A stretch of DNA of 64,000 nucleotides from Brevundimonas sp. (GCF_035626535.1 NZ_DASPNO010000053.1:12994-76993), one strand, 5' to 3'; shown: positions 13,939 to 31,490, numbered from the stretch's first letter. Numbers and translations are program-made. Notes: generated by a model from the letters alone, not told the origin.

Positions 13939-14682
13939 TCAGATCCGCATCAGCCAGACCAGCCAGACGCCGAGACCGAGAAGCGGGGCGAAGGCGATCC
14001 GGGCGTCCGCCGCCGGGCGGCCGCCGACCGCCCGCCGCGCCACGACGAGGCCGACGCCCGCCGCGGACGCGATCAGGAGGACGGGCGGCAGGCCCTGCCA
14101 GCCGACCCACGCGCCCCCGGCCGCGAACAGGAAGGGATCGCCCCCGCCGAGCCCGTCCCGGCCGCGCAGCCGGCGGTAGGCGAAACCGAAGAGCCACAGC
14201 GCCGCGAAGCCGAGCCCGGCGCCCAGGACGGCGTCGCGGAGCCCGGCGCGCTCGAGCCAGCCCACGGCGAACAGACCGGACGCCAGCAGCGGCAGGGTGA
14301 GCCGGTCCGGCAGCCAGAGATGCTGGAGGTCCACCGTGGCGATCAACAGCAGCTGCCAGCCGAGCAGCGCCGTGAACACCGCGCCGGCCGGGTCCGGGCC
14401 GGCGAGCGCGGCCCAGACTCCCACGCCGGCGGCCGCCAGTTCGAGGAGCGGATAGCGGACGGGAATCGCGCTTCCGCAGGTCCGGCATCGCCCGCGGCTG
14501 GCGGCGTAGCTGGCGACCGGGACGAGATCCGGCCAGGCCAGAGTCCGTCCGCACCCACCGCAGCGGGATCGGCCAGTCACGACATCCTCGCCGGCGGGCA
14601 GGCGCAGGCTGACCAGTCCGAGAAAACTGCCGACGATCAGACCCGCCACGCCCAGCGCCACGGCGAGAAGCGGCGGCGTCAT
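13939..14682 (-). CDS. gspO: Prepilin peptidase (A24)
   Basis: GSFLG, RSRCGGC...RCRTC, YPLLE, VDLQHLWLPD, GLGGGD. Confidence 0.9.
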   Translation of the reverse strand: MTPPLLAVALGVAGLIVGSFLGLVSLRLPAGEDVVTGRSRCGGCGRTLAWPDLVPVASYAASRGRCRTCGSAIPVRYPLLELAAAGVGVWAALAGPDPAGAVFTALLGWQLLLIATVDLQHLWLPDRLTLPLLASGLFAVGWLERAGLRDAVLGAGLGFAALWLFGFAYRRLRGRDGLGGGDPFLFAAGGAWVGWQGLPPVLLIASAAGVGLVVARRAVGGRPAADARIAFAPLLGLGVWLVWLMRI

Positions 14683-15146
14683 CCGCCGGCGGCTGGATCG
14701 GTGGCCGGATCCGGAGCCGCGTCCGAGGTCGGCTCGGTCGCGGCGAACAGCTCGAGGCTCCGATCTCCGGCCGGTCCGCGGACGGTGGCGCTGCGTCCGG
14801 TCACGGCGACCAGTCGCCATCCATCCAGGGTTTGCCCGATGGACACGCCCTCGACTTCGCCGGAGTCGGCGCTGCGCAAATAGGCGCGCCGGCCGGCGAG
14901 ACCGACCAGGACCGGGACGGCGGTCGGGGCGACTACGGTCGGTTCCGCTCCGGCCGCGTGAAGCCGAAGGGGAAAGCCCGCGACGGGACCGCTCCGGCGC
15001 GCCTGGTGATCCGCTCCGAAATAGCGGTCCACGCCCGGCGCTGCCGGGGGGCGGGCCGCGGCGGCCGGCCAGATCAGGATGACGAGCGTCGCCAAGGCGC
15101 ACGCGCCGAGAACCGCGGAGGCCCAAAGCCGCCCGAGCTGCGTCAT
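14679..15146 (-). CDS. T2SS accessory protein, GspN/GspC-like
   Basis: N-terminal TM; LVGLAGRRAYLR...GQTLDGWRLVAV; position in the gsp operon. Confidence 0.5.
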   Translation of the reverse strand: MTQLGRLWASAVLGACALATLVILIWPAAAARPPAAPGVDRYFGADHQARRSGPVAGFPLRLHAAGAEPTVVAPTAVPVLVGLAGRRAYLRSADSGEVEGVSIGQTLDGWRLVAVTGRSATVRGPAGDRSLELFAATEPTSDAAPDPATDPAAGG

Positions 15147-15628
15147 GCGATCACCATCAGCAGCACGAGCGCCACGGTCCCTTCCCGGGTCGGTCCGAGA
15201 CCGAGCGTCAGGGATTTGAGCCGGACGGCTTCGCGATTGACGGCGATCCAGTTGGCGACCGCGGCCGAGGCGGCGGCGTCGCCTAGCGCCTGGACGCGCA
15301 CCTCCGCGAGGTGCAGGCCGCCGCCCAAGGGGCGCAGGTTCGAAGCGTCCACCGCAAGAACCGTCAATCCCAGTTCGGCGAGCCGCCCGTTGAGGTGCTC
15401 GCCGATGGCGATCTCGGCGGTCGCGCCGTTGCGCCGCAGCAGGGGCCGTCCTGGCGTCCACGGCGCGGCCTTGTCGGCCGTGATCGGAGCGCCGCCCGGC
15501 CGGTCGCCGGCCGTCGTCACGGCGCGAAGATCGCGTCCCGCGGCAAGGGCGGAGGTCAGGGCGACAAGGGTGAGTCCGACGGCCGCCAGCGCCGCGCCCC
15601 GGTTGAGCCAGAGGGTGCGCCGCGTCAT
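15143..15628 (-). CDS. GspM-like T2SS protein
   Basis: N-terminal TM plus small alpha/beta C-terminal domain; follows the L-like gene with 4-nt overlap. Confidence 0.5.
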   Translation of the reverse strand: MTRRTLWLNRGAALAAVGLTLVALTSALAAGRDLRAVTTAGDRPGGAPITADKAAPWTPGRPLLRRNGATAEIAIGEHLNGRLAELGLTVLAVDASNLRPLGGGLHLAEVRVQALGDAAASAAVANWIAVNREAVRLKSLTLGLGPTREGTVALVLLMVIA

Positions 15629-16401
15629 CCGCAGACCTCGCTTGGGAAGGTCACGGCCAGAGTCTGGGCTCCGGCGGCCGGGGGCAACTCCAGGGCTGCG
15701 ACCAGGGATGCGGCGTCCGTTCCCGGGGCGAGCGTCAAGCTCACGCGCTGCCCGTCGGCGGCGGCGCCGGTCACCGCCACGCCGTCCGGGCGGACGGCCG
15801 CGATCCGGGTCGCCGCACACAGATAGCGGGTCGCGGCGTCGGTTCGCCCGAGAGCGGCCCAATCGGCTCGCGCCGCGGCCTGCTGGGCGACGAGGCGGGC
15901 CGCGCGGGCGGCGAGACGTTGTTCGGCGGCGATCTCGGGCAGGCGGCGTTCACGCCATTGCTCGGCCCGCAACTGCCCGGCCAGGGCGACCGCGGCGAGG
16001 CCGAGACAGACCATCGCCGCCCTGGGCGCATGCCGCAGCCACCGCGCCTCGCGATCGTCGACGGCGCCCGCGTTGCGGAAGCGGAAGACGACGTCCTGCC
16101 CGCCGACGGTCTTGGCGACCGCGACGATCCGCTGGGCGCCGAAGGCCGGATCGGCCAGGGCCGAGCGCCGCAGGACGCCGAGCGCATAGACGGTTTCGCC
16201 GGCCTCGTGGCCGAGCGGCGCCAGTTCGAAGACGGTGTCGGCGACGGGCAGGGGGGAGAGGCGGTCCAGCTGCAGGCGCGTGATGGCGCGCGCCTGCCGG
16301 AGCGACCGGGTCGGCAGCCGCAGCACGCGCGTCATCACCTCCAGCTCGGGTCGCGGCGCGGAGGCCGGCTTCAGGTCGAGGGAGAGGTCGTCGAGCGGCA
16401 T
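15625..16401 (-). CDS. GspL-like T2SS protein (short)
   Basis: LRLPTRSLRQARAITRLQLDRLSPLP (PilM/GspL-like), central TM, coiled coil. Confidence 0.6.
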   Translation of the reverse strand: MPLDDLSLDLKPASAPRPELEVMTRVLRLPTRSLRQARAITRLQLDRLSPLPVADTVFELAPLGHEAGETVYALGVLRRSALADPAFGAQRIVAVAKTVGGQDVVFRFRNAGAVDDREARWLRHAPRAAMVCLGLAAVALAGQLRAEQWRERRLPEIAAEQRLAARAARLVAQQAAARADWAALGRTDAATRYLCAATRIAAVRPDGVAVTGAAADGQRVSLTLAPGTDAASLVAALELPPAAGAQTLAVTFPSEVCG

Positions 16402-16775
16402 GATTGACTGACGGTATCGTATTCGCAGCGTTCGGGAAGGTCGCACCGGTAGCGGATGCGGTCTTTGGCCGACGCAGCGATCTCGGCGGCGTCGGGTCGG
16501 CACCCCGGCGCGGGCCGATCGGCGAGCCCCGCCTGGGACAGGGCGAGCTGCTGGCTGGCGCGGGCGAGCGCGGAATAGCCGGCGCCGACGCCGACCAGCA
16601 GAATCGAGGCGACCGTCATGGCGATCATCAGTTCGAGGACGCTGTAGCCGGCGCGGGCGGCACGACCGCTTCGACGACCAGGTCCGGGCCGAAGCGCCGG
16701 TCGACCACGATGCGCACCCGCCGCGCCGCGGACGGGACGTCGTCGGTGCCGGCGCCGGTGCTGGTGTAGGTCCAT
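16371..16775 (-). CDS. Minor pseudopilin, GspJ-like (start uncertain)
   Basis: Class III signal RAG|YSVLELMIAMTVASILLVGV. Confidence 0.7.
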   Translation of the reverse strand: MDLHQHRRRHRRRPVRGAAGAHRGRPALRPGPGRRSGRAARAGYSVLELMIAMTVASILLVGVGAGYSALARASQQLALSQAGLADRPAPGCRPDAAEIAASAKDRIRYRCDLPERCEYDTVSQSCRSTTSPST

Positions 16776-17014
16776 GAACGCCCCTCCGTCTCGCCGACCT
16801 GTTGTCCGCCGGCGCGCTCGCCCGCGTAAAGATCCTCGTAGAGATCGTCGGCGATCCTCGTCGCCGTCAAGCGATCTCGCGCCTGGGCCATGCGCGAGAC
16901 CGCGTTGGAGGCCAGCGCCACGGCGGCGGCGACCGCCAGAACGGTGATCGTGAGCGCCACCATGGCGTCGATGGTCAGATAGCCGCCGCGGGCGCTGCTT
17001 GCGTCAGGAGGCAA
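16628..17014 (-). CDS. Minor pseudopilin, GspI-like
   Basis: ARGG|YLTIDAMVALTITVLAVAAAV; GRSWTYT; size 128 aa. Confidence 0.7.
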   Translation of the reverse strand: MPPDASSARGGYLTIDAMVALTITVLAVAAAVALASNAVSRMAQARDRLTATRIADDLYEDLYAGERAGGQQVGETEGRSWTYTSTGAGTDDVPSAARRVRIVVDRRFGPDLVVEAVVPPAPATASSN

Positions 17015-18194
17015 CGGCGTCTCCCACAGCGAGCAAACCCTGGAACACCATCATGGTGATCAGTCCGACCATGGCGCCGACGACGATGATGACCAGAGGC
17101 GTGAGAACGGACAGCAGCCGTTCGATCGCTTCCTGGGCGCGAGCGCCCAGCAGCGCGGCGCCGTCGTTCAGAGCCGCGCTCACCTGCCCGGAGTGTTCGC
17201 CCATCAGGACATAGTGGATCAGGTCGGGGGGACAGGCGGGGATGCGCCGCAGCACCTCCGACAGTCGCACGCCTTCCATCAGACGCTCGTCCTGCGCCGC
17301 AAGGGCGCGGCCGAGCGAGCTTATGCTCACCGGCTCGCGGGCCAGCCGCCAGGCCGGCGCGAGGGGAACGCCGGCGTGGAGCATGACGGCGAGGCGGGCG
17401 GCGAGATTGGCGAAGACGAAGTCGCGCAGCGGCGAGCGCTTGCCGCGCATCAGCAGGCGGGCGACCCCATCGCCGGCCGAGCGCCGCACGGGCGCGAACA
17501 GCGTCATCGCGACGGCCAGACCGCCAGTCGCCGCGGCCAGAATGGGCAGCAACACCCGCACGATGACCCCGAAGGTCAGCACGGCCTGGGTCTGGGCCGG
17601 AATGTCGCCGCCCATGCCCTCGAACGCCGGCTCCAGGGAGGGGAGCACGGCGTAGGCGTAGATGGCGATCGAGCCGAGGGCGACGAGGATGACGAAGGCG
17701 GGGTAGAGGCACAGGGTGATCAGCCGCTTCTTCAGCTGATCGGCGGCGGCGAGCGACCGCGCTCCGGCGGCGAGCACCTCGCTCTGGCGACCGGAGGCCT
17801 CGCCGCCCCGGGCCAGGGCCTGCAGGAACCGGGCGGGCCCGCCGTCCGCGGCCTCGAGCGCGCGGGACAGGGGTTCGCCGGCGATCAATCGCTGTCGCAC
17901 CTCGCGGGCGATCGCGCTCATGCGTGGGGTTTCCCGCGTCTCCAGCAGGGCCAAGGCCTGGGCCAGCGCCATGCCGCTGGTCATCAGCTGGGCCAGGTCG
18001 CGGCCGAACCGCGCCGCCTCGGCGTCGGTCAGGCGCAACCCACCCCGCTGCTGCAGCAGGGTCGGCTGGATGGTGAGCGGGTGAAGGCGCGCCTCCACCA
18101 GACGATCGCGCAGGGCGGCCGCGCCCGGCGCATAACTGACCCCGCGCAGGCGGCGTCCGTCCGGGCCGAGCGCGGTATAGCGAAAGGCCTTCAT
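17004..18194 (-). CDS. gspF: T2SS inner membrane platform protein
   Basis: MKAFRYTALGPDGRRLRG, LAQLMTSGMAL, GEASG, LYPAF, GEHSG, LTPLVIIVVG. Confidence 0.92.
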   Translation of the reverse strand: MKAFRYTALGPDGRRLRGVSYAPGAAALRDRLVEARLHPLTIQPTLLQQRGGLRLTDAEAARFGRDLAQLMTSGMALAQALALLETRETPRMSAIAREVRQRLIAGEPLSRALEAADGGPARFLQALARGGEASGRQSEVLAAGARSLAAADQLKKRLITLCLYPAFVILVALGSIAIYAYAVLPSLEPAFEGMGGDIPAQTQAVLTFGVIVRVLLPILAAATGGLAVAMTLFAPVRRSAGDGVARLLMRGKRSPLRDFVFANLAARLAVMLHAGVPLAPAWRLAREPVSISSLGRALAAQDERLMEGVRLSEVLRRIPACPPDLIHYVLMGEHSGQVSAALNDGAALLGARAQEAIERLLSVLTPLVIIVVGAMVGLITMMVFQGLLAVGDAVAS

Positions 18195-19888
18195 CGGTCG
18201 GCGACGCGCCAGGCGTCGCCCCAGTCGAGCAGACCTTCCGCCGATTGTTCGAGCGCGTCCTGTCGCAAGGTGGCGTAGCCGGGCTGGTCGACCAGGTGTC
18301 GGCGCAGGATCGAGGCGTGGGCGCCCGCGCCGATCAACTCGCCCAGTTCGGGCGTGCAGACCATGAGTTCGCTCACCGCCCTCCGGCCGCGGCGCCCGGC
18401 CCCGCCGCAGGCGGGACAACCCTGCGCCCGTCCCACCAAGGACGGCCGCAGGGACAATCCGGCCTCACCCAGGGCGGCGGTTTCATCGGCGTCCAGCGGG
18501 CTGGTCGTCTTGCAGGCCTGGCAGAGCTGGGCCACGAGGCGTTGCGCCATGACCCCGATCAGGGCGTCGCCGAGCAGATAGCGCTCGACCCCCATGTCGA
18601 TGAGCCGCGACGGCGTGGTGGCCGCATCGTTGGTGTGCACGGTGGCGAGCACCAGATGGCCGGTCAGACTCGCTTGCACGGCCAGGCGTGCGGTTTCCGT
18701 GTCGCGGATCTCGCCGACCAGGATGACGTCGGGGTCGTGACGCAGAAAGGACCGCAGGGCGGTCGAGAAGGTGAAGCCGGCCGCCTCATTGACTTGGCTC
18801 TGCAGGATGTCCTCGAAGACGTATTCGACCGGATCCTCGACGGTGAGGATCTTGTTCCGGGCCGAGGCCAGTTGGCGCAACCCAGCGTAGAGGGTGGTCG
18901 TCTTGCCGCTGCCGGTGGGGCCGGTGACCAGCAACAGGCCGTGGCCGCGCATAAGGAGCTGGCTAAGGCCGGCGGCGACCGGGAGCCGCAGGCCAAGCCG
19001 CTCAAGGGAATAGTCGACGTCGCGCCGGGTGAGCAGGCGAACGACAAGGGATTCGCCGAACACCGTCGGCGCCGTCGAGATGCGGACATCGACCGGGACG
19101 CCGCGGACATTGATCGTGGTGCGCCCGTCCTGTGGGGCGCGGCGCTCGGCGACATCGAGGTCGGAGAGGACCTTGATCCGGGCGATCAGGGCCGGCCCGA
19201 TGTCGACGCCGAGCCGTTCCTGATCCTGCAAGGCGCCGTCGATCCTGAAGCGCACCCGGGTGTGGTCGCTCTTCTGCTCGACATGCACGTCCGAGGCGTT
19301 GAGCAGGAAGGCGCGCTCGAGGATCTGTTCGGAGAGACGAACGACCGGGGCGTCCCGGGCAATGTCCTTCAGCCGCTCGGCGTCATCCAGCCAGGTGGCC
19401 GCGGCGGCGGCCGGCCGCGCGGTCTCGGCGGCGGGTTCGGCCACGTCCTGCACGCGCCGCCAAGCGCTGAGCGTGATGGTGCGCACGGGGATGTCGCGGC
19501 CGAGCGCGAAGCGCAGCGCCTCGCGGGTGGTTTCGTCCCCGGGGTCGACCAGGCCGAGGCACCAGCCGCCCTCTTCGTCGGACATGGCGACGGCATAGCG
19601 ATCCTGCAGGAACCGCACGCTGAGACCCGGCAACTCCAGCCGCTCGATCGGAACGCCGTCGGGCCAACGCGGCGCGTCATGCAGGGCGCTGCAGGCCTCG
19701 GCGATCGCCTCTTCGGTGGCCAGGCCGAGCAGGCTCAAGGCCACGGCCAGCGGCTGACCCGAACTGGCGCTGGCGCGCTGGGCGCGGGCGAGGGCGCTGC
19801 CGCCCAACTGAAGGGCCTCGGCCAGGACCGACCGGGTGTCGGCGGGCGCCGGCAGCTCGAACTCGTCGACAGGTGTAGGTCTAACCAT
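18191..19888 (-). CDS. gspE: T2SS ATPase
   Basis: ASDVHVE, RFRIDG, QDGR, TGPTGSGKTTTLY, TVEDPVEY, LRHDPDVILVGEIRD, LTGHLVLATVHTN, CxxC motifs. Confidence 0.95.
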   Translation of the reverse strand: MVRPTPVDEFELPAPADTRSVLAEALQLGGSALARAQRASASSGQPLAVALSLLGLATEEAIAEACSALHDAPRWPDGVPIERLELPGLSVRFLQDRYAVAMSDEEGGWCLGLVDPGDETTREALRFALGRDIPVRTITLSAWRRVQDVAEPAAETARPAAAAATWLDDAERLKDIARDAPVVRLSEQILERAFLLNASDVHVEQKSDHTRVRFRIDGALQDQERLGVDIGPALIARIKVLSDLDVAERRAPQDGRTTINVRGVPVDVRISTAPTVFGESLVVRLLTRRDVDYSLERLGLRLPVAAGLSQLLMRGHGLLLVTGPTGSGKTTTLYAGLRQLASARNKILTVEDPVEYVFEDILQSQVNEAAGFTFSTALRSFLRHDPDVILVGEIRDTETARLAVQASLTGHLVLATVHTNDAATTPSRLIDMGVERYLLGDALIGVMAQRLVAQLCQACKTTSPLDADETAALGEAGLSLRPSLVGRAQGCPACGGAGRRGRRAVSELMVCTPELGELIGAGAHASILRRHLVDQPGYATLRQDALEQSAEGLLDWGDAWRVADR

Positions 19889-19961
19889 ATGAAACGCCGT
19901 GGACTCGGCTCCGCTCCCCCCTATAGTCGATCATGAGTAGCGTGTTGGTTCGGGGGGAGCC

Positions 19962-20420
19962 ATGGAGAAATCAGCCGAGGGCGCGAGACGAACCGCGCGC
20001 ATCCGCCGGGCGGGCTACACCCTCACCGAAATGCTGGTGGTACTGGTCATCATCGGCCTGATCAGCGCCATCGTCGTGCCCCAGACCCTCGGACAGATGG
20101 ACCGCGCCAAGGTACGGGCCGCCCGCCTGAAGATGGAGAGCGTGGCCGCCGCGCTGGAGATGTATTCCGCCGACTTGGCGCGCTATCCGACCCGCGAGGA
20201 GGGGCTGGACGCCCTCATGGATCCGCCCGAGGGCGTCGCCGAATGGGCGGGCCCCTACCTGTCGGATCCCGCGCTGACCAAGGATCCGTGGGGTCGCGCC
20301 ATCGTCTATGCGCCGCCCGCCGCGGCGGGAGACCGGTTCACCCTGACCAGCTACGGCGCCGACGGCGCCCCCGGCGGCGCCGGTTTCAAGCGCGACATCG
20401 TCCTGGGAACGGCCCGATGA
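19962..20420 (+). CDS. gspG: Major pseudopilin
   Basis: AG|YTLTEMLVVLVIIGL, YPTREEGL, WAGPYL, DPWGRAIVY, SYGADG. Confidence 0.93.
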   Translation: MEKSAEGARRTARIRRAGYTLTEMLVVLVIIGLISAIVVPQTLGQMDRAKVRAARLKMESVAAALEMYSADLARYPTREEGLDALMDPPEGVAEWAGPYLSDPALTKDPWGRAIVYAPPAAAGDRFTLTSYGADGAPGGAGFKRDIVLGTAR

Positions 20421-22444
20421 AGATCGCCACGCGCGCCCTTGTCGCGGCCGGTCTCGGCTTGCTCGCCGCCTGCGAGACCCCGCGGAGCATCCGTCCGGAT
20501 CTGGCGGTCATTCCGCAAAGCCGCCCCGCCGCTCCCGCTTCCGTTCCCGATCCGGCCCAGACGCCGGAGACCGCCGATGACCTGGCCTGGCGGATCGAGA
20601 GCGAGGCGCGGGTGCCGGCGTCGCCGGCGGTTGAGCGTTCGCCCGTGCGGACCTTCAATGTCGTGTTCGATCAGGCGCCGGTCGCCGCCGTCGCCGACGC
20701 GATCCTGGGGCAGACCCTGCGGCGCTCCTTCCGCATCGACCCGTCGGTGCAGGGCGCCCTGACCCTCAGCCTGACAGGTCGCATGAGCGAGGCCGAGGCG
20801 CTCGCCAGCTTCGATCGCGCCCTTCGCAGCCTCAACGCCGCCCTTGTCGCCGAGGGAGGCGGCTACGCCATCGTGCCCGCCGCCCAGGCGTCGCGACTGA
20901 ACGCCCCGCCCGTCGTCGCCCGGGAAGGGGTCGACGCCTTGGCCGGTACGGCCGTCTATCAGGCGAGATCGATCGGCGCGGCCGAGATCGCCCGCCTGCT
21001 GGAGCCGCTGGCCGGGGAGGGGGCCACCGTGCGGGCCGATCCCGCCCGCGAGCAGCTGTACATTTCCGGAGACCCGACCACGGTGAACGCCCTGGTGCGC
21101 ACCGCGCGGTCGCTCGACGTGGACTGGCTCGAAGGCAAAAGCCTGCAGTTCTTTCCCGTCCGGCACGCCACCCCGGCCGACATCGCCTCCGAAATCCGTC
21201 AGGTCTTCGGGGGGGCGGACGGCCCTATGGGCAACCAGATCCAGTTCATCGAGCTCGGTCGGCTGAACGGCTTGTTGGTCATCGCCCGCTCGACCGCCGG
21301 GCTCGATCGGGCGGCGGAATGGATCCAGCGCTTCGACCGCGCGCCGCCGCCGGCCGCGCGCCGTCTGCGTTCGATCCCGTTGGCCAACCTGGAGGCCGAC
21401 CAGTTCGTCACCACCCTGTCGTCTCTGCTCGGGACGGGGACGGCGGGCGCACCTGGGGCCACGGCGGCAGGGGAGTCCCCGTCCGCGGCGACGGCGCCCG
21501 CGTCCGCGGAGGGTTCGTCTCCCCTCGCCGGGTCGTCAGGCGCGGGGATGGCCGGGGCCCTGCGGCTGACCGCGGACGCGCGAACCAATTCCCTGATCCT
21601 GCTCGCAGACGACGCGGAATACCGCAACGTGCTGGACATTGTGCGCGAGCTCGACGCGCCGCCGCCGCAGGTGCTCATCGAGGCGACGATCGCCGAGGTG
21701 ACGCTGAACGACCGGCTGCGCTTTGGCGTGCAATGGTTCTTTGACGACGGCGACCTGACCGGCGGCTTCTCCTCGGGCGCCAATGATGACGCCGCGCCCG
21801 GCTTCCCTGGCCTCTCCGTCCGCTACCTGAACCTCGACGTTCGCGCCGTGCTGAACGCGCTCTCGACCGTCACCGACGTGCAGCTGATCTCCACGCCGCG
21901 CATCCTGGTGCTCTCCAACGAAAGCGCCGAACTGCAGGTCGGGGACCAGGTGCCGATCATCACTCAGACGGCGGTCGGGTTGAACGACGACAGCCGCATC
22001 GTCAACAGCGTGCAGTACCGGGACACCGGGGTGGTCCTGTCGGTGACGCCGCGGGTGACCGAGAGCGGGCGCATGTTCATCCAGATCGAACAGGAAGTGA
22101 GCGAGGTGTCCGGCACGACCTCGTCGGACATCGACTCGCCGACCATCCAGCAGCGGCGCTTGAGCACCCGCATCCAGGTCGAGGACGGGCAGCTCGTCGT
22201 GCTCGGTGGACTCCTTCGCTCCAGCCGCAGCCTGGGCGACACCGGCGTGCCGTACCTGAGCCGCATCCCGGCGCTCGGCGCGCTGTTCCGCTCGCGCGAC
22301 ACGACCGAGCGGCAGACCGAGCTGGTGATGTTCCTGCGTCCGACGGTGATCCGCGCCCGTTCGGACATCGACGCGGTCTCCGCTGAGATGGTGGCGCGGC
22401 TGCAGGCGCTGGGACTACCGGTTGAGACGCCCGTCGAGCCCTGA
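20417..22444 (+). CDS. gspD: T2SS secretin with lipoprotein signal
   Basis: MKIATRALVAAGLGLLAAC; TNSLIL, QVLIEATIAEV, QVGDQVPI, QYRDTGVVLSVTPRV, GVPYLSRIPALGALF. Confidence 0.93.
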   Translation: MKIATRALVAAGLGLLAACETPRSIRPDLAVIPQSRPAAPASVPDPAQTPETADDLAWRIESEARVPASPAVERSPVRTFNVVFDQAPVAAVADAILGQTLRRSFRIDPSVQGALTLSLTGRMSEAEALASFDRALRSLNAALVAEGGGYAIVPAAQASRLNAPPVVAREGVDALAGTAVYQARSIGAAEIARLLEPLAGEGATVRADPAREQLYISGDPTTVNALVRTARSLDVDWLEGKSLQFFPVRHATPADIASEIRQVFGGADGPMGNQIQFIELGRLNGLLVIARSTAGLDRAAEWIQRFDRAPPPAARRLRSIPLANLEADQFVTTLSSLLGTGTAGAPGATAAGESPSAATAPASAEGSSPLAGSSGAGMAGALRLTADARTNSLILLADDAEYRNVLDIVRELDAPPPQVLIEATIAEVTLNDRLRFGVQWFFDDGDLTGGFSSGANDDAAPGFPGLSVRYLNLDVRAVLNALSTVTDVQLISTPRILVLSNESAELQVGDQVPIITQTAVGLNDDSRIVNSVQYRDTGVVLSVTPRVTESGRMFIQIEQEVSEVSGTTSSDIDSPTIQQRRLSTRIQVEDGQLVVLGGLLRSSRSLGDTGVPYLSRIPALGALFRSRDTTERQTELVMFLRPTVIRARSDIDAVSAEMVARLQALGLPVETPVEP

Positions 22445-23090: not shown

Positions 23091-23894
23091 TCAGGGGCCG
23101 ACCTCGCACTGGTTCTCGCTGGTCGGAACGCATTCCTCGCCCAGGCCGACCTCGACGGTGACCAGGCCGGTGTCGGTCCCGCCGTGGCCGTCGCTGACGG
23201 TGTAGGTGAACGAATAGGAGCCGGCCGTGGCCGGCGCCATGTAATCCACATAGCCGCCGCCGCTGGGTATGGTGGCGGACCCGCCGGTCACGTTCGACAC
23301 GCCGGTGACGGTCAGGGTGTGGCCGTTGGCGTCGGTGTCGTTCGAGAGGACGAAGATCGACTGGGACAGGCTGACCGTGGTGCTGGCGGTGTCGTCGATG
23401 GCAACCGGCGCCGCGTTGGCCGACGATACGGTCACCGTCACGGTCGCCGTCGCCGTGCCGCCCGCGTTGTCCGAAATCGTGTAGGTGAAGTTATAGGTCC
23501 CGACCGCGGCCGGCGCCGTATAGCGGACATAGGTCTGGCCGCCCTGGATGACGACGCTTCCGCCGCTGGGCGTCCCGACCTGGATGACCGTCAAGCTGTT
23601 GCCGTCGGGATCGCTGTCGTTGGCGCGAACGGAAATGTTGACGCTGGCGGAGGCGCTGACGGAGGCCGTGTCGTTGACGGCGACCGGCGGCGAATTGGGC
23701 GGTTGCGAGGTGACGATCTGGGTGCGGTTGCCGGCGGCGTCGTAGCGATACTGGATGACGACGCCGTTGGAATAGATGGCTTTGATCAGCCGCCCCGAGC
23801 TGTCGTAAACGTATTGCACATCGGCTGAGGCCGGCACCGCGGCGAACAAGGCCAAAGCCGTGACGCCAACCTTGAGGAGTGATCGCAGGGTCAT
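23091..23894 (-). CDS. Secreted protein: signal peptide + YD-repeat hairpin + two cadherin/Ig-like (Big_9-type) domains
   Basis: ALFAAVPASA|D; YVYDSSGRL...YRYDAAGNRT; twice PVA.DD...NDxDxxG...FTYT.SD.xGG. Confidence 0.85.
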   Translation of the reverse strand: MTLRSLLKVGVTALALFAAVPASADVQYVYDSSGRLIKAIYSNGVVIQYRYDAAGNRTQIVTSQPPNSPPVAVNDTASVSASASVNISVRANDSDPDGNSLTVIQVGTPSGGSVVIQGGQTYVRYTAPAAVGTYNFTYTISDNAGGTATATVTVTVSSANAAPVAIDDTASTTVSLSQSIFVLSNDTDANGHTLTVTGVSNVTGGSATIPSGGGYVDYMAPATAGSYSFTYTVSDGHGGTDTGLVTVEVGLGEECVPTSENQCEVGP

Positions 23895-24253
23895 TGCGTG
23901 GCCGGCTCCGAACGGTTGGCCGCCGCCAGGGTCGGCGAGAGGTCGGCCTGCATGGCTGCCGCCGCGGACTGACTGGCGCGCCACTCCTGATCGGTCGGCA
24001 GGCGGGGCGGCCCGGGCTGGCGATCCGGCTGAAGCACGACCCAGAGAGAGCCGGCGATCAGAACGGTCAAGGCTCCAGCGACGCCGGCGCGCGGCCAGGA
24101 AACGGCCGCCGCGCGGTCCCTCCAGCTGACGGCGCCGGCCCAGCGATTCCCGTCGAACGTCAGGCGGGCTTCATGTTCGAGCCAGGCGACCCCGCTGCGG
24201 ATTCCGCGCCCGGTTCCGTCCAGCCACTGTGCGGCCCGCGCCCGAATGTTCAC
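23891..24253 (-). CDS. Hypothetical single-TM protein
   Basis: AGVAGALTVLIAGSLWVVL; ATGA overlap with the downstream YD/Ig gene. Confidence 0.6.
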   Translation of the reverse strand: MNIRARAAQWLDGTGRGIRSGVAWLEHEARLTFDGNRWAGAVSWRDRAAAVSWPRAGVAGALTVLIAGSLWVVLQPDRQPGPPRLPTDQEWRASQSAAAAMQADLSPTLAAANRSEPATQ

Positions 24254-24396: not shown

Positions 24397-27300
24397 GTGA
24401 AGTTTTGGGTGGATCGCATCAGGCCTGCGGGCCGCGTCCTGACCGGCAAGGGCGCCGTTTTCGCCACGCTGGCCCTGGCGGCTGTCGCGATCGTCGCGTC
24501 ACTGGCGCTGCTGAAGCCCTTCGCTTGGGCGCAGACCTGGCCCGCCTACTACAACTCCGCCCAGACCCCGTCCGATCTGCCCGGCATGCGGCTCTCGCTG
24601 CAGTACAACCTGGTCTCCCCGACCAGCAGCGATCTCGTCACCGTTTACGGCACGCCTGCCTCTCCCGCAGCGCCTGCGCCCAGCGCTCGTATCGTCGCCC
24701 TGGCGCGCTCGCTGGAGAACGACCCGGACCGGATTTACCAATTCGTCCACAACAGCATCCTGTTCGAGCCGCAGTTCGGGCTGCACAAGGGGGCCGACGG
24801 GGTGCTGCTGGACGGATCGGGCGGATCCTTCGATCAGGCCCAGCTCATGGTCGAGCTGCTTCGGACGTCGAACATCCAGGCCCGCTATGTGTTCGGCACG
24901 GTCAACCTCACCGGCGCGGATGCCAAGTCGATCTTGCGGGTCGATACCGGCCGTCAGGCCTGCATCCTGCTCGCCACAGCGGGTACGCCCGCGACGATCA
25001 ACAACGGGACGACCTCGTGCGCCAATCTGGGCGCGACCCTATCCGACGTGCAGATGCTGCACGTCTGGGTCGAGGCGTTTATCGATGACCAGTGGTACGC
25101 CTTCGATCCGTCGCTGAAGACGACAACCAAAATCACCGGCGTCGATTTGTGGGCAGCGGCCGACACGAGTGCGTCGGCGGCCTGGAGCAACGTCTCCTCG
25201 GGGGTATCTGTCAGCGGCGGCGACCTGAACGGCGTCAACGCGACCCACATCGAGAACGATATGGTCGCCTACGCTATGGCGCTGCAGACCAACTTGATCA
25301 ACAACCACACGGAAAAGTCGCTGAAGCAGCTGACCGGCGGCTGGGAGATCGTCCGCACCGAGGCGGCCCCGCGCAATATCACCCTGCCGCGGCAGGCCAG
25401 CGTCTCCACCCGCTGGACCGGCGACGTGCCGACGCCCTATCGGGCCACCCTGCGGCTGCAGGCGGCGGGCTTCGATCATGTCTTCGACCTGCCGAGCATC
25501 TACGGTTGGCGAACCCAGGCGCAGTTTCGAGACGGCGTTCTACGGGTTGCCGTCCGCAAGAAGGAACACCTCGACGCTGATGCCGCGGCCTACTTCGCCG
25601 ATGAGCTGGATGGTGGTCTGTCGATCAATCCGTGCGACGGTGTTCACGTCTTTTGCGCCAACGTCCCAGGACAGCATCCGCCTGACGGGCGCCGGCTCAC
25701 CATGACCATCGACCACCCGTACGCCGCGCGCAAGACTGGGGCTCCGACAGCAAACCTGGGCACCTTCGGCGATGAAACCGTCGTTAAGCAACTGCAGGCG
25801 GGCAAGCGCGCTGACATACTCCTGCGCACAGCGGGGGGCAACGGCGGCCGCAAGGCCGCCTGGGCCGCCGCGTACGACCCTATCCAGCAGCATCGTATCG
25901 TCCCCGCCGGGCGCGACTTTGACCAGTGCTACCTGAAGCCCCCGGTCTGGAACCCGGATCTTGAGCGTTGGGAGTGGCACGTAGACAGCCCGAGCGATTG
26001 CGATGAGGCGACCGGCGTGGATTGGCGTTATTGGGTGCCGGACAGCGCCTATGGAAACGGTCCCTTCGCTACGGGAGAGGTCGCCGTCGCCGAGATGGGA
26101 ACCCGCAAGGACTCCCTGCTCAACGGCTGGACCGATCTGTTCGACGGGACCGTCGCTATCCTGGAGCCGCTGTCCGGCGCGCGCATTTTTCACCAGCATT
26201 CCATCGGCGTGGCGCTCACGACCGGTGACAATGTCCTGGATATCGAGACGTCGGTCGGCATCGCCGCCAATGGCGCCGATCAGCCGCATCATATTCTGTC
26301 GGCCCTTGCGGCCCTGGCGGTGACGGAGGAAGCGCTGGCGCTGAGCCAAAGCGGGATGGAGCGTCCGTCCTTTAAGGGCTCGCCTTTCCAGGTCATCACT
26401 GCGCCACGGCGTCTGGCGACCGGCACGGGCCTGAAAGTTCTGACGGCGCCTGGTTCGACCACGAGCCTTCCAGCAGACGTAAATGCCGACACGAAGGACA
26501 GGATCGAGGCCTATCTAACCAAGGGCTACTCCGTCGTGGCGACCACGACGGGCGGCGTGAATGCCTTCCTGGCGCGGCGCAACGATGGGTCGGAGCAGGC
26601 GTGGATCATCCGCTCTTCGGCCGAAGAGACCGGTCATGCCAATCCATTGATCGCTTTCCGTAAGGGCGCGGAGCAGGAGACCCCCAATCCGGTCGATTAT
26701 CTCGGCAAGGCGGAGTCGCGGCGGATAGCGGCCAATGTCGCCGGCTCCCTGCTCGGCGCCGTGGACCTTCGAACCGGCACACTCTCCTTCAGCGAGGGAG
26801 CCGAACTCTCGATCGGTCAGGGCGACTTCCCCTACAGCCTCAGTTTCTCGCGCAGCTATGTCTCAACCGGGCCCATGGAGGGAACAAGCGGCTTGGGCAT
26901 GGGCTGGACACACAATTGGGAGAGTTCGGTCAGCCACGCCATGGATGTCGGCACCCTGTTGCCTCAGGCCGGGACGGAGACTGCGGCGCCTATGCTGATG
27001 GCGGCGATGATCGCCCTGGAAGCGGGGCGAGCCGACACCCTCCAGGCCGCCGTTGTTTCGGGGATCGCCCTGGATTTCCTGCAGGAGCAGGTCGCCACCA
27101 ATATCGTCACCGTGAGCGGCGGGGGTCAGTCCAGCCGCTTCGTGCGCATGGTCGACGGGAGCTGGCGCAATCCGGCCTCACCGACGGAATCCATCGCGCC
27201 CGCCAGCGCGCCGTTCATCGGCGCCGATACGCGCGAGATCAACTGGACCCTGGCCGACGGGTCGGTGATGGCGTTCCGCGATGTCGAGAACCCCAGCACC

Positions 27301-30300
27301 TTGTCCACCTCCACCAACCTTCATGGCGTCGCGACATCCTGGACCTTCCCCACGGGCGTCGTGATCACCCTGACCTACGGCGGGGGAACGGACACCAATA
27401 CGCCGGCGCTGGAGTCGGTCTCGAACAATCTGGGGGCGACGCTCACCTTCACCCATACCCAGACGCCGACCCAGGCGATGATCGAACACTGCCCAACGAT
27501 GGGGGACCCGCAAGCGTGTCATGAGGCGCTGAGCGGCGGCGGCCGTCTGACCAAAGTCCAGGCGGGGCCTGACGAGATCAACTTCGAACACCTGACCTAC
27601 TGCCCGCAGTTCGTCAATTTCTGCGCTTTCCAGCTGTACAGCGCGCAACGGCCCGGACTGCGCAAGCGGATCTATACGTACGGCTTCCCCACGGGCGGCT
27701 TGGCGACGGCGGTCTTTCCGATGGATTATCAGCAGGTCCTGACCCAAGTGAGTGATGAAGGCGTCACGACGCCGCGAGCGCGGTTCGACTGGCGCGCCGT
27801 CGGCGGCCAAGTTGCGCCTTATGTGGCCGAGGCCTTCGACGCCCAGAACCGCAAGACGGTCTACTATCCCTCGACCTTCACCTACTCCGCGGCCAAGGAC
27901 GCCACGGACGCGGTGATCCGGCAGACCTACGACGACGATGGGCGTCTGGTGACGGCGGCGGACGCCATGGGCCGGACCTCCCGCGCCCGCTACGACGGGG
28001 CCGGCCGGTCGAGCTGGATGCAGACGCCTTGGGGCGACACCACCGAGTTCACCTACGACAGGCTCGGCAACCTCAGAGAACGCAAACAGTCGCCGCTCGC
28101 CAACTGCGCCACCGGTCTGACTGTCCAGCAGCAGGCTTGGTGGTGCCAGGAGATCGTCGTCAAGGCGGAGTACGCCAACACGACGTGGCCGACCCGGCCG
28201 ACCAAAATCGTCCTGCCCGCGACCGAGGCGGATCCCCAGGTCCGCGAGTGGGAGATGGAGTACAACTCCCAAGGGCTGGTGACCCTGATCAGGGGTCCGA
28301 GGGTCGAGAACGGGCTTAACAACAATGTCCTCGAGCACCCGACCTGGGCGACCGGCTATGACAATCGGGGTCGGCCTGTGTGGACGCAGGATCCAACTGG
28401 CATCCGGTCAACGATGGCGTACGGTGAGTCCACGATGCCGGCTTTCTGCCTGACCTCCACGACCATGTCGGCTCAGCCCGCTGGCGTGGCCGGGATGATC
28501 ACGAGGATGGAATGCGACGTGGTCGGCAACGTCACCAAGGTGACCGACGCCCGCAACAACGTCACCACATCGACCTATGATAACCTGCGCCGCAAGCGGA
28601 CCGAAGACGGGCCGGCCAGCACGGCCATCAAGACCATCTGGAGCTACAATATCGATGGGGACCTGGACCTGGTGCGGCAGTGGGACTCGACCGGCAACAC
28701 GTGGCGTGACACCATCACCGCCTATTCGGCGACGCACAAGCCTCTGACCGTGACAGACCCCGACGGCGATCTGACCCGGACCTGCTACGACGCCGTGGAC
28801 CGCCCGGTGACCGTGATCGACGGCGAACGCCGGGCCACGCACACCGTCTATAACGCAGCCGGTCAGCCGACCGAAATCCATCGCTTCCAAAGGGCGGCGG
28901 CGGGCTCCTGTGGGTTCTCGACCGAGCTGCCGCAGGACGCCGGCTTCACCGAGACCCGCTGGCGGCGCTTTCAATACAATGCCGGAGGCTTGCAGAGCGC
29001 GGAAATCGACGCCCGAGGCAACGTCACCCAGCAGCAGTACGACGGCGTCGGCCGGCCGATTCGAACCATCTACCCGAACACCCTGCAGGCGTGGACGGCG
29101 ATGGACGAGCGGGGGCAGGTGGTAGTGCGCAAGACCCGCGCCAATCACTGGGCGAGCGTCTTCTACGACGGCATGGGCCGGGACTTCCACGTGCGGGAGT
29201 ACGCCAACAGCGAAACCGCCTACAAGTACAGGGGCCGCAACAGCCGGGCGAACTACGACCTGGCTGGCCGACCTGTCTGGCGGGCGGTGTCGAACCAGAC
29301 CACGCAGACCAATACCTACGATGAGGCGCTGAACCGCGATGTCCGAACCTATAGCTATGACCAAGCCGGACGGCTGACCTCCGAACAGTGGCGGCCGGAG
29401 GGCGTGGCGGGGATCAGCTTCACCACCGGGTACGGCTACGACACTGTCAGCAACCGGACCTCGATCACTTGGCCGGGCGCCTGGACAGCCGCTTACGCCT
29501 ACGACGCGGCCAATCGGGTCAAGTCGGTGAACTTCCCGGGACCCGCAGGCGCGCCGCAAGTCGTGGCCCTGGACCACGACTCTCTCAGCCGCCTCACTAG
29601 AATGGATCGGCCGGGTGCGGCCGCCGACACCACCTACACCTATGATGCGGATAGCGATCTTGCGGTGCTGAGCCATGGCTTTGTCGCAGGAACAGGGCCG
29701 GGGGCGGTGAGCTTCTCCTACGGCCACGACGCGGCGGGCAAGATTACCTCGATTGGGATTGATCAACCGGCCTTCGAGTGGATGCCGACGCTGACATACG
29801 CCCGCAGTTACGGGGCGGCGAATGTGATGAACCAGGTAGCGTCCGAGACGGATAGTGTTACATCGAGGGCGCTATCCTTCGACGGCAACGGCAACCTGTC
29901 CCAAGAGGTGCGCACGCCCGTCGTCGGCGGGACCCCGGTCACCTGGACCTATCACTGGACCTACGGCAACCGCTTGGGTGTGGTCACCAACAACGCCGCG
30001 GTTTCGCCGCTGACTGCGAGTTACCATTATGACTCCGATGATCGCCGCACCAAGAAGGTGGTCAACGGAGTTACCCGGCGGATGATGTGGTCGGGGATGG
30101 ATGAACTAGCGGAGTATGACGTTAACGGCGACTTGCTCCGACGCTTTATCCCCGATGGCACGGGCGCGATGGACGCACGGCTGGCGACGGTGACACCGAC
30201 AGGGGACGTCTACTGGCATCACACCGACCACCAAGGGTCGGTGATCGCCACGTCGAACAGCGCCGGGGAGACGGTCGGTGTGGCCAGCTATTCGCCTTAC

Positions 30301-31086
30301 GGAGAGTTCGGGGGCGATGCGACGACGACGCCGCAGCACAGTCCGTTCGGTTATGCCGGGCGGCAGTACGATGAGGAGACAGGGCTGTATCAGTACCGGG
30401 CGCGATACTATTCTCCGCGCTTGGGACAGTTCCTGTCTAGTGATCCGATTGGGACTAAGGACGATCCGAACCTGTATCTCTACGTCGCAAACGATCCGGT
30501 GAACCTGACCGATCCGACCGGGATGGAATGCAAGAATAACACTGAGGCAGGGACAACGAACTGCGTCACCAAAGACTACAATGTCACATTCAAGACGACG
30601 GATAGTTTTCCTGGGACTGACGCCTCGCGAAGCGACTTCCACTATTATGACGAAACCGCGCAGTCACACTTGGGCGTCGATGCGACCAGGAATTGGGTTC
30701 AGCAGAACCCCACGCCGGGCGATCCTAGCCCTGCGACTCCGGGCGGTACTAGAAATGATGCCACACCAGTGATTGGCGGACTGCCCGGGGATATCAGTCC
30801 CGTATCGTCGATCACGACTACCAATACGGTCAGTGGAAATCCTGTGGTCGTGAACGTTACCTTGCCGGGCCATCCTCTTTTCCCTGGTATAGTCGTTCGG
30901 GAGGTGGTGCCTAACGCCGACGGCACTTCAACCATTCATAATCGGGGTGAGGGCAATGGCGACCTGCAGCGACCGGGCGCTCCTTTTGCCGGGGCAATCA
31001 ACGGCGTGTGGAGAGGTCAGCGTCCGCCTCCGCCGACTCGGCCCTCTGGCCCAACGTGTTCTTACACATTGATGGGATGCCGATGA
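24397..31086 (+). CDS. RHS/YD-repeat polymorphic toxin with Sec-like signal, transglutaminase-like domain, DUF6531-like domain and unknown C-terminal domain
   Basis: N-terminal hydrophobic stretch ending AWA|Q; DQAQLMVELLR..ARYVFG..HVWVE..FDP; GLGMGWTHNWE; many YD repeats; YRARYYSPRLGQFLSSDPIG...NDPVNLTDPTG. Confidence 0.95.
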   Translation: MKFWVDRIRPAGRVLTGKGAVFATLALAAVAIVASLALLKPFAWAQTWPAYYNSAQTPSDLPGMRLSLQYNLVSPTSSDLVTVYGTPASPAAPAPSARIVALARSLENDPDRIYQFVHNSILFEPQFGLHKGADGVLLDGSGGSFDQAQLMVELLRTSNIQARYVFGTVNLTGADAKSILRVDTGRQACILLATAGTPATINNGTTSCANLGATLSDVQMLHVWVEAFIDDQWYAFDPSLKTTTKITGVDLWAAADTSASAAWSNVSSGVSVSGGDLNGVNATHIENDMVAYAMALQTNLINNHTEKSLKQLTGGWEIVRTEAAPRNITLPRQASVSTRWTGDVPTPYRATLRLQAAGFDHVFDLPSIYGWRTQAQFRDGVLRVAVRKKEHLDADAAAYFADELDGGLSINPCDGVHVFCANVPGQHPPDGRRLTMTIDHPYAARKTGAPTANLGTFGDETVVKQLQAGKRADILLRTAGGNGGRKAAWAAAYDPIQQHRIVPAGRDFDQCYLKPPVWNPDLERWEWHVDSPSDCDEATGVDWRYWVPDSAYGNGPFATGEVAVAEMGTRKDSLLNGWTDLFDGTVAILEPLSGARIFHQHSIGVALTTGDNVLDIETSVGIAANGADQPHHILSALAALAVTEEALALSQSGMERPSFKGSPFQVITAPRRLATGTGLKVLTAPGSTTSLPADVNADTKDRIEAYLTKGYSVVATTTGGVNAFLARRNDGSEQAWIIRSSAEETGHANPLIAFRKGAEQETPNPVDYLGKAESRRIAANVAGSLLGAVDLRTGTLSFSEGAELSIGQGDFPYSLSFSRSYVSTGPMEGTSGLGMGWTHNWESSVSHAMDVGTLLPQAGTETAAPMLMAAMIALEAGRADTLQAAVVSGIALDFLQEQVATNIVTVSGGGQSSRFVRMVDGSWRNPASPTESIAPASAPFIGADTREINWTLADGSVMAFRDVENPSTLSTSTNLHGVATSWTFPTGVVITLTYGGGTDTNTPALESVSNNLGATLTFTHTQTPTQAMIEHCPTMGDPQACHEALSGGGRLTKVQAGPDEINFEHLTYCPQFVNFCAFQLYSAQRPGLRKRIYTYGFPTGGLATAVFPMDYQQVLTQVSDEGVTTPRARFDWRAVGGQVAPYVAEAFDAQNRKTVYYPSTFTYSAAKDATDAVIRQTYDDDGRLVTAADAMGRTSRARYDGAGRSSWMQTPWGDTTEFTYDRLGNLRERKQSPLANCATGLTVQQQAWWCQEIVVKAEYANTTWPTRPTKIVLPATEADPQVREWEMEYNSQGLVTLIRGPRVENGLNNNVLEHPTWATGYDNRGRPVWTQDPTGIRSTMAYGESTMPAFCLTSTTMSAQPAGVAGMITRMECDVVGNVTKVTDARNNVTTSTYDNLRRKRTEDGPASTAIKTIWSYNIDGDLDLVRQWDSTGNTWRDTITAYSATHKPLTVTDPDGDLTRTCYDAVDRPVTVIDGERRATHTVYNAAGQPTEIHRFQRAAAGSCGFSTELPQDAGFTETRWRRFQYNAGGLQSAEIDARGNVTQQQYDGVGRPIRTIYPNTLQAWTAMDERGQVVVRKTRANHWASVFYDGMGRDFHVREYANSETAYKYRGRNSRANYDLAGRPVWRAVSNQTTQTNTYDEALNRDVRTYSYDQAGRLTSEQWRPEGVAGISFTTGYGYDTVSNRTSITWPGAWTAAYAYDAANRVKSVNFPGPAGAPQVVALDHDSLSRLTRMDRPGAAADTTYTYDADSDLAVLSHGFVAGTGPGAVSFSYGHDAAGKITSIGIDQPAFEWMPTLTYARSYGAANVMNQVASETDSVTSRALSFDGNGNLSQEVRTPVVGGTPVTWTYHWTYGNRLGVVTNNAAVSPLTASYHYDSDDRRTKKVVNGVTRRMMWSGMDELAEYDVNGDLLRRFIPDGTGAMDARLATVTPTGDVYWHHTDHQGSVIATSNSAGETVGVASYSPYGEFGGDATTTPQHSPFGYAGRQYDEETGLYQYRARYYSPRLGQFLSSDPIGTKDDPNLYLYVANDPVNLTDPTGMECKNNTEAGTTNCVTKDYNVTFKTTDSFPGTDASRSDFHYYDETAQSHLGVDATRNWVQQNPTPGDPSPATPGGTRNDATPVIGGLPGDISPVSSITTTNTVSGNPVVVNVTLPGHPLFPGIVVREVVPNADGTSTIHNRGEGNGDLQRPGAPFAGAINGVWRGQRPPPPTRPSGPTCSYTLMGCR

Positions 31087-31490
31087 TGCACGGCTTTAAT
31101 ATTCGAGCTGGGTTGGCGTTTCTGATTGCACCAGTCGCTTTTGGAATTCTGGCTTTGTTAGTCGCAACGATTTCGGGCAACGCCTCTGAAGGGCTTTGGG
31201 CGCTGAGATTGTCAGCAATGCTCGGGTATCCAGTTGCGCTGCTAACCGGGCTTCCCGCGTATCTGTGGATGACCCAAAGGCGGTGGGTCGGCCTGCCTGC
31301 GTACCTCGGCTTGGCCGTAGTCTACGCGGTCGTCTTGTCGGTGTGGCTATTCCTTAGGCCGGCATTGATGAGGCCAGAACACCTAAATCTGAATGCTCTA
31401 GCGCTTCAAAGCGGAGCGGTGCTGATCGGATGTACCATCACCCTAGTGATATTCTGGCTGATCGCCCGGCCGGATAAAGGGGGTCGGTGA
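31083..31490 (+). CDS. Putative membrane immunity protein (about 4 TM)
   Basis: ATGA overlap with the RHS stop; hydrophobic throughout; lower GC, like the RHS tip. Confidence 0.7.
   Translation: MMHGFNIRAGLAFLIAPVAFGILALLVATISGNASEGLWALRLSAMLGYPVALLTGLPAYLWMTQRRWVGLPAYLGLAVVYAVVLSVWLFLRPALMRPEHLNLNALALQSGAVLIGCTITLVIFWLIARPDKGGR

Follow-up and report, generated by a model that had tools for sequence, protein, structure and literature searches.

Gene Content of the Locus

The window analysed here is a stretch of 64,000 nucleotides from a Brevundimonas sp. genome of 2.74 Mb (contig C53:12994-76993; 70% G+C, 92% complete), and the coordinates of all its features are positions in this window. 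Gene models were built from the third-position G+C and from family searches against Pfam and NCBIfam. Between positions 13,939 and 31,490 the window carries a compact gsp cluster for a type II secretion system (T2SS), a gene for an RHS protein of 2229 residues, a gene for a secreted YD/Big_9 protein and a small membrane-protein gene. A first-pass annotation, made from the sequence alone, had proposed that a dedicated T2SS is packaged here, on a mobile island, with an RHS toxin, a YD/Ig partner and an ATGA-coupled immunity gene. Each of these genes was recovered where it had been placed.

The Accessory Type II Secretion System

The genes of the secretion machine, read along the window, are the following.

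13939..14682, minus strand: GspO/PilD-type prepilin peptidase, 247 aa (Pfam A24_N_bact 1.5e-25, Peptidase_A24 3.5e-20)
14679..15146, minus strand: bitopic membrane protein, 155 aa, with an N-terminal transmembrane (TM) helix, GspC/N-like by position and topology only
15143..15628, minus strand: bitopic membrane protein, 161 aa, GspM-like by position and topology only, conserved in orthologous clusters
15625..16401, minus strand: GspL/PilM-like assembly-platform protein, 258 aa, from an AlphaFold2 model and Foldseek
16371..16775, minus strand: minor pseudopilin-like protein, leader G↓YSVLE (Pfam N_methyl 7.7e-5, TIGR02532)
16628..17014, minus strand: minor pseudopilin-like protein, GspI-like, leader G↓YLTID (TIGR01707 gspI, E 5.5e-7, 30 bits, under the cut-off of 44)
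17004..18194, minus strand: GspF inner-membrane platform protein, 396 aa (Pfam T2SSF 3.4e-31)
18191..19888, minus strand: GspE secretion ATPase, 565 aa (Pfam T2SSE 1.1e-116)
19962..20420, plus strand: GspG major pseudopilin, leader G↓YTLTE (TIGR01710, 126.7 bits, over the 88.85 cut-off; Pfam T2SSG 4.2e-30)
20417..22444, plus strand: GspD secretin of the lipoprotein type, 675 aa (TIGR02517, 435 bits, over the 351.35 cut-off; Pfam N0, three Secretin_N, Secretin)
22422..23087, plus strand: open reading frame (ORF) of 221 aa, with a prepilin-like leader lacking Glu5 (G↓YVSLL), possible GspK-like minor pseudopilin

The block from GspO to GspE lies on the minus strand, and GspG, GspD and the 221-residue ORF run divergently from it on the plus strand, with the gspD start overlapping the gspG stop codon as ATGA. 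The cluster was also considered as a type IV pilus or Tad system, and this was rejected because GspG and GspD passed the T2SS equivalog cut-offs and the best models for GspE and GspF were also those of T2SSs. GspE (best NCBIfam model type_II_gspE, 463 bits, cut-off 630) and GspF (best NCBIfam model GspF, 185.7 bits) scored under their equivalog cut-offs and are therefore divergent members. Judged by these models, the cluster can be classed as a divergent yet recognisable T2SS. The N-terminus of GspD, MKIATRALVAAGLGLLAAC, reads as a lipobox (LLAAC, window 20417-20480) whose Cys19 is invariant in eight relatives, and the secretin is predicted to be a liposecretin, as in the Hxc-type accessory T2SSs.

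The gsp letters given by the first-pass annotation stood in part. E, F, G, D and O were assigned by family and L, as an L-like protein, by fold, while I, J, K, M and N/C are given by position or topology only. For the 258-residue protein the AlphaFold2 model had a mean pLDDT (predicted local distance difference test score) of 83, and the top 11 Foldseek matches in the PDB were all PilM or the cytoplasmic domains of GspL/EpsL/PulL (probability 0.63-1.0, E 4e-3 to 0.15). An hhalign comparison with the canonical GspL of the genome gave no sequence-level similarity, and the protein is called L-like because the fold search alone supports the assignment. For the 155-residue bitopic protein, which is 42-65% identical among Brevundimonas loci, the searches gave XpsN alone, as a weak match (E 4.8e-4; 19.8 bits, cut-off 400). 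The 161-residue bitopic protein matched no family in Pfam or NCBIfam, and hhalign was negative against the canonical GspM of the genome. The cluster has three prepilin-like ORFs besides GspG, of which only one matched gspI, under the threshold, and none matched a J or K model. The 221-residue ORF occupies the same place after gspD in all relatives; it had no family match, and its hhalign comparison with the canonical GspK of the genome was also negative. As for GspO, the gene is present in some orthologous clusters and missing from others.

On contig C63 the same genome has a canonical gspC-D-E-F-G-(H)-I-J-K-L-M cluster, close to which lies a prepilin peptidase of its own. The window cluster is therefore a second, accessory T2SS.

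The RHS Protein, Its YD Partner, and the Candidate Immunity Gene

Directly beside the machine lie the RHS gene (24397-31086, plus strand, 2229 aa) and three smaller genes.

23091..23894, minus strand: secreted YD/Big_9 partner, with a signal peptide (ASA↓D), a single YD hairpin pair and two Big_9/cadherin-like domains
23891..24253, minus strand: ORF of 120 aa, upstream of the YD/Big_9 gene and ATGA-coupled to it, no family match
24397..30522, plus strand: conserved part of the RHS protein, with signal peptide (residues 1-45), inactive transglutaminase-like head (residues ~99-238), DUF6531, YD shell and DPxG...DPxG
30523..31086, plus strand: polymorphic C-terminal toxin tip of the RHS protein, 187 aa, no Pfam family
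31083..31490, plus strand: candidate immunity protein, 135 aa, about four TM helices, so named from its position

The RHS protein begins with a basic n-region and a hydrophobic stretch of 20 residues, followed by AWA↓Q. The cleavable-looking signal proposed by the first-pass annotation was supported by comparison: in 8 of the 8 orthologues whose N-terminus could be read, an AxA↓Q site follows the hydrophobic core, and the basic n-region is kept too. The homologues of Ponticaulis and of betaproteobacteria have short classical signal peptides. A Tat signal was also considered. RR pairs occur in some orthologue leaders and are missing from that of the window protein and from several others; for the window protein Sec is therefore more likely than Tat.

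The searches in Pfam detected Transglut_core (1.6e-12), RHS_repeat (1.4e-19) and DUF6531. In the transglutaminase motif, GSGG-S-FDQA, a serine takes the position of the nucleophilic cysteine, and all orthologues have S, A or P there. When residues 46-815 were modelled with AlphaFold2, the transglutaminase core alone was confident (pLDDT 74-93), not the remaining ~550 residues. The fold of this head model matched transglutaminase-like cysteine proteases (probability 0.99), and a hidden Markov model search of the PDB with the head alignment gave no match.

Near the end of the shell the DPxG-(x)n-DPxG autoproteolysis motif was found as DPIGTKDDPNLYLYVANDPVNLTDPTG (residues ~2016-2042). The orthologues share the core up to DPIGTKDDPNLYxYV..DPVN.TDPTG and then continue into unrelated tips of 167-192 residues in all nine that could be read to the C-terminus; at the nucleotide level, the homology to 11 orthologous RHS loci stops at window positions 30521-30536. 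The tip is thus polymorphic after a fixed break point. Among relatives of the locus the tips include Ntox24, or PT-HINT and HNH with DUF7668. A tip 64% identical to that of the window is the first of three RHS C-terminal cassettes in an orphan array (G040:C27:35272-38713) whose genome belongs to a different family within the same order; this tip family therefore moves between lineages.

An orphan RHS C-terminal fragment was also seen just left of the window (L091:11581-12405, that is, C53:11581-12405). It is a frame of 275 residues that shares 70% identity with the window RHS over residues 2010-2058 and is probably a displaced toxin tip.

The YD/Big_9 protein was recognised in Pfam by RHS_repeat (1.5e-8) and Big_9 (2e-38). 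Of 79 related loci, about 65 have a small YD ORF adjoining the RHS gene, and in Beta- and Gammaproteobacteria this ORF is cut down to a signal peptide and one YD pair. The 120-residue ORF coupled to the YD/Big_9 gene is 30-60% identical among Brevundimonas loci. On the other side, the start of the four-TM ORF overlaps the RHS stop codon as ATGA; its product matched no family in NCBIfam or Pfam.

The first-pass annotation had also noted that the window holds no type VI secretion system (T6SS) marker, and this was extended to the genome. TssC/VipB, the T6SS sheath protein, was not found in the genome of the window or in three complete genomes carrying the module, in a search that matched the E. 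coli positive control, and Pfam detected no PAAR or VgrG domain on the RHS protein. The RHS protein as T6SS cargo was rejected because there is no TssC and no PAAR and a signal peptide is present.

Linkage of the Accessory T2SS to RHS Genes

Homologues of the window secretin, 70-91% identical, are present in many Brevundimonas assemblies. After the T2SS block known from the window, Brevundimonas sp. M20 and B. naejangsanensis have YD/Big_9 genes and a transglutaminase-RHS gene of 2232-2246 residues, with different outer flanks; the block conserved in the genus is exactly T2SS, YD and RHS core. We then placed the window in a secretin tree of 84 loci, where it belongs to a well-supported Caulobacterales clade. 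The secretin gene was linked to RHS or YD genes in 10 of the 13 loci of the Brevundimonas clade, in both loci of the L007/L020 clade and in the three of Hyphomonadaceae, where Hyphomonas beringensis is counted as linked with only a small YD ORF visible before the contig end. Regarding the three Brevundimonas exceptions, two lie on contigs cut off within the YD/Big_9 gene or shortly past it, and the third comes from a genome that has an orthologous RHS of 2208 residues on another contig.

A further arrangement was that of an uncultured Ponticaulis (52% G+C), whose secretin is 34% identical to that of the window. There, a single strand carries in order a YD/Big_9 gene, two ORFs, a 976-residue RHS with a signal peptide, PT-HINT and HNH, a DUF7668 protein, the secretin, a 231-residue ORF, gspG, gspE and gspF. 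The linkage holds at 33-38% secretin identity, with different gene orders and in different classes.

The reverse test started from the RHS side. A search with a profile built on ten orthologues of the RHS head (residues 46-815) yielded 80 loci, of which 79 were used for the neighbourhood counts; their sources are Alpha-, Beta- and Gammaproteobacteria, with a few other phyla, and nearly all their RHS proteins measure ~2000-2300 residues. A gspD, E, F or G gene lies within 10 kb of the RHS head in 31 of the 79, in at least 10 families of Alpha-, Beta- and Gammaproteobacteria; compared with a generous chance expectation of 3%, this gives p ~1e-26, with relatedness ignored. Full D, E, F and G sets stand by the RHS gene in Paraburkholderia, Burkholderia, Caballeronia, Massilia, Janthinobacterium and Phenylobacterium, and gspG alone in Variovorax loci. 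In the GspE tree, eight sequences of Burkholderiaceae and Oxalobacteraceae form their own clade, all of them RHS-linked. The idea that the RHS-linked T2SSs are one lineage was discarded, since they are not monophyletic in this tree and fall in at least two separate linked clades.

Co-occurrence was counted over 151 species genomes of Brevundimonas. Both the accessory secretin and the RHS head were found in 5, the secretin only in 1 (a genome 77% complete), the RHS only in 1 and neither in 144 (Fisher p 6e-8, uncorrected for phylogeny). In the complete genome of B. intermedia the accessory secretin is missing and the RHS is truncated, aligning to residues 23-1423. Linkage of this gsp clade to signal-peptide RHS genes with variable C-termini, which the first-pass annotation had proposed to look for, was therefore found in many genomes.

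Two minor observations were made on these loci. One is a fragment of an RHS core between the gspE and gspG genes of an uncultured Brevundimonas (L011:8581-9381), at a place with ~2 kb of extra DNA. Furthermore, several metagenome-assembled genomes (MAGs) labelled "uncultured Flavobacteriaceae" (loci L041, L045, L057-L061, L129, L141 and L143) group in the secretin tree with Micropepsaceae and other Alphaproteobacteria, and these labels are probably wrong.

Comparison with Known Systems

By its YD shell, DPxG autoproteolysis motif, polymorphic C-terminal toxin tip and downstream candidate immunity gene, the locus resembles the PAAR/VgrG-linked Rhs effectors of the T6SS (Tse5, RhsA); it differs from them in that a signal peptide replaces the prePAAR/PAAR, there is no VgrG or Eag chaperone and the genome has no TssC. 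WapA of Bacillus subtilis is likewise an RHS/YD polymorphic toxin with a Sec signal and an immunity gene, but its host is monoderm, with no outer membrane to cross and no secretin machine. On the side of the machine, the closest comparison is Hxc, the second T2SS of Pseudomonas aeruginosa, which has the liposecretin HxcQ and exports LapA. By description it is also an accessory T2SS beside a housekeeping one, with a lipoprotein secretin and, as is proposed here, an adjoining substrate gene; in contrast to the present cluster, it keeps the canonical gene set, and its cargo is a phosphatase, not a polymorphic toxin.

The toxin belongs to a class already described by Zhang et al. (2012; PMC3482391), in which an inactive transglutaminase domain comes after a signal peptide or a TM helix and before RHS repeats. 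The marks of this class (signal peptide, catalytically incomplete transglutaminase-like domain, RHS repeats and variable C-terminal toxin) are all found here, and some of its members have bacterial Ig domains nearby. That work filed the class under the default Sec/"T2SS" route and listed no signature neighbourhood genes; "T2SS" there stands for default Sec, whereas in the present locus the toxin is co-inherited with a full second gsp operon and with a mini-YD partner.

Functional data come from Xanthomonas perforans, where the activity of the RHS protein Bcn-A was found in cell-free supernatant and disappeared when the secretin gene xpsD was mutated (Marutani-Hert et al., 2020; PMC7259588). 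By description, Bcn-A is, as is proposed for the window protein, an RHS-family antibacterial toxin with accessory ORFs and a downstream immunity gene; it differs in its length of 1398 residues and in relying on the housekeeping Xps, with no dedicated machine adjoining. This mutant is the one functional hint found on how signal-peptide RHS toxins cross the outer membrane in diderms. More recently, Gomez Cabrera et al. (2025; bioRxiv 10.1101/2025.05.08.652813) reported the gspG-linked families XRhs F VIII of Xanthomonas and RRhs F II of Ralstonia, and predicted T2SS export, stated as not functionally confirmed. The likeness lies in shared gspG synteny only, that is, Rhs genes syntenic with a T2SS pseudopilin gene, as in the Variovorax loci of the reverse test; there, gspG alone is found within 5 kb upstream or 3 kb downstream, whereas the present locus has D, E, F, G, O and the platform.

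The first-pass annotation knew of no experimental description of such a route, and on this point it did not hold: the route is not undescribed, as the three works above show. The toxin class and the idea of its export by a T2SS are already known; what appears new is the co-inherited, putatively dedicated machine with the mini-YD partner. Our literature search returned no paper on a complete second T2SS operon co-inherited with such toxins, and the complete, second, co-inherited operon with its mini-YD partner appears to be undescribed.

Proposed Function and Alternative Readings

Taking into account the gene content and the linkage, we consider it probable that the locus is an accessory polymorphic-toxin module and that the second compact T2SS is its export machine. 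The RHS precursor would be exported by Sec, and its signal peptide would be cut at AWA↓Q. In the periplasm the protein would fold into a YD shell around the 187-residue C-terminal toxin, which would be freed inside the shell by the DPxG aspartyl autoproteolysis motif. The GspG pseudopilus would then drive the shell out through the lipoprotein secretin GspD, with GspE providing the power and GspF and the L-like protein forming the platform. A role in being recognised by the machine, in surface retention or in target binding is probable for the inactive transglutaminase-like head and for the co-secreted YD/Big_9 protein. The four-TM protein would protect the producer, and the nature of this candidate immunity protein suggests a toxin acting at the membrane or from the periplasm. 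The gene content, the lack of a T6SS, the presence of a second T2SS, its co-inheritance with the RHS gene and the polymorphism of the tips stand as findings. The passage of the RHS protein through the accessory T2SS, the role of the YD partner, the toxicity and the immunity are inferred from sequence, and we regard the interpretation as a strong genomic inference rather than a demonstrated pathway.

Several observations weigh against it. A folded shell of ~240 kDa would rank among the largest T2SS substrates; the assignments of M, C/N and K are positional only; and the 20-residue hydrophobic stretch of the RHS protein could be an uncleaved anchor. The genome also encodes a second, shorter signal-peptide RHS, with a Pro-rich hydrophobic C-terminal tip, on contig C23 (~17500-20155; locus L092). 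In the Caulobacter clade of the secretin tree none of the 16 loci was linked to RHS, so that the machine can exist without an adjacent RHS; among four genomes of this clade that were searched, three had no RHS at all and one had four transglutaminase-RHS genes elsewhere. Finally, 48 of the 79 transglutaminase-RHS loci had no T2SS gene within 10 kb. The Caulobacter-clade relatives also weaken the word "dedicated" in the first-pass annotation, and the machine can be called putatively dedicated.

The Caulobacter-clade clusters and the many RHS loci without nearby T2SS genes are what would be expected if the adjacency reflected only co-transfer on accessory DNA, the accessory T2SS exporting other cargo and the RHS protein leaving by the housekeeping T2SS, in vesicles or by lysis. 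Bcn-A, which uses the housekeeping Xps, is also in agreement with this, and Tc-type RHS cocoons are reported to be released by lysis (PMC10847048). Nevertheless, we find this explanation unlikely. The linkage persists at 33-38% secretin identity through varied gene orders and classes, including the same-strand string of Ponticaulis; co-occurrence at the genus level is strong; and what the Brevundimonas loci conserve is exactly the T2SS, YD and RHS core, while the flanks differ.

It is also improbable, in our judgement, that the T2SS-like machine is a device for surface display or contact-dependent delivery, in which the RHS shell, fastened by the YD/Big_9 protein and the inactive head, is offered to neighbouring cells by the pseudopilus or the secretin. 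The small YD partner is near-universal beside these RHS genes, its alphaproteobacterial forms bear adhesin-type Big_9/cadherin domains, and the RHS toxins of other systems need close apposition to the target. These points favour display, but the RHS bacteriocin Bcn-A works in cell-free supernatant, no sortase signal, lipobox or outer-membrane barrel was seen on the RHS or YD protein, and GspG belongs with the standard major pseudopilins of T2SSs, not with the pilins of long pili.

A signal anchor that keeps the RHS protein unsecreted, to act from the inner membrane or periplasm of the producer, would fit the h-region of ~20 residues and the "signal peptide or TM helix" of Zhang et al., but it is very unlikely given the AxA↓Q site kept in all eight orthologues despite sequence divergence, the short classical signal peptides of the Ponticaulis and betaproteobacterial homologues, and the polymorphic tips with cognate downstream genes, which imply action on other cells.

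The export reading could be carried further. The RHS-linked machines might constitute a distinct, widespread T2SS subtype (liposecretin, truncated GspL, reduced pseudopilins) specialised for the export or presentation of Sec-delivered RHS cocoons, with the mini-YD serving as adaptor between the shell and either the pseudopilus tip or the secretin. This is a tentative proposal, which we hold to be possible but doubtful; if true, it would be a new toxin-delivery pathway parallel to the T6SS delivery of Rhs. In bacteria lacking a T6SS, this locus and those related to it provide a compact system that is genetically separable, made of an accessory T2SS, an RHS toxin, a small YD partner and a candidate immunity gene. 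It bears on whether a YD shell of ~240 kDa could pass a T2SS, on the roles of the inactive transglutaminase head and the mini-YD, and on whether interbacterial toxins have a general T6SS-independent route across Proteobacteria.

Flanking Genes and Borders of the Accessory Region

Outside the T2SS-RHS module the following features were annotated.

20-1841, plus strand: two-gene unit of low G+C (56%), a 169-aa protein with N-terminal TM helices and then a SMODS/AGS_C nucleotidyltransferase
~1774-3500, minus strand: large serine recombinase (Resolvase, Recombinase and Zn_ribbon_recom domains)
11226-13907, plus strand: HerA/TraD-like ATPase, 893 aa, no TM helices
32684-33748, minus strand: truncated GT2 glycosyltransferase, cut within the QxxRW motif after ...WLPQR and followed by unrelated sequence
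32766..32772, no strand: right junction of the accessory region, inside the truncated GT2 gene, taken from the start of homology to congeners

The module is clearly accessory and stands in different contexts in different genomes. Its description as a mobile island was substantiated on two counts, the serine recombinase and the ParB- and TraD-like genes on the left and the right junction mapped in the GT2 gene, and fell short on the left border, which could not be mapped. The relatives of the GT2 protein measure ~499 residues and continue as ...WLPQRTRWLKG for ~170 more residues. Homology to the congeners that carry the gene starts at about 32766-32772 in the closest and at up to ~32796 in others (query positions 82-113), and in the remaining congeners the match is limited to the TetR-FecCD part further right. 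The missing C-terminus of GT2 was looked for across the assembly and was not found, and the 14-20 kb that lie by the GT2 junction in three congeners have no counterpart in this assembly. A simple insertion model was therefore not confirmed.

Beside the serine recombinase there are a 704-residue ParB-like gene and two HTH_3 regulators, and it is possible that this recombinase is the integrase of the element carrying the T2SS-RHS module. The HerA/TraD-like ATPase is conserved (83% identity) in one further Brevundimonas MAG, L015, where it stands directly upstream of this T2SS block. Lastly, the two-gene unit at 20-1841 looks, from its domains, like a defence module of the CBASS (cyclic-oligonucleotide-based antiphage signalling system) type at the left edge of the accessory region.

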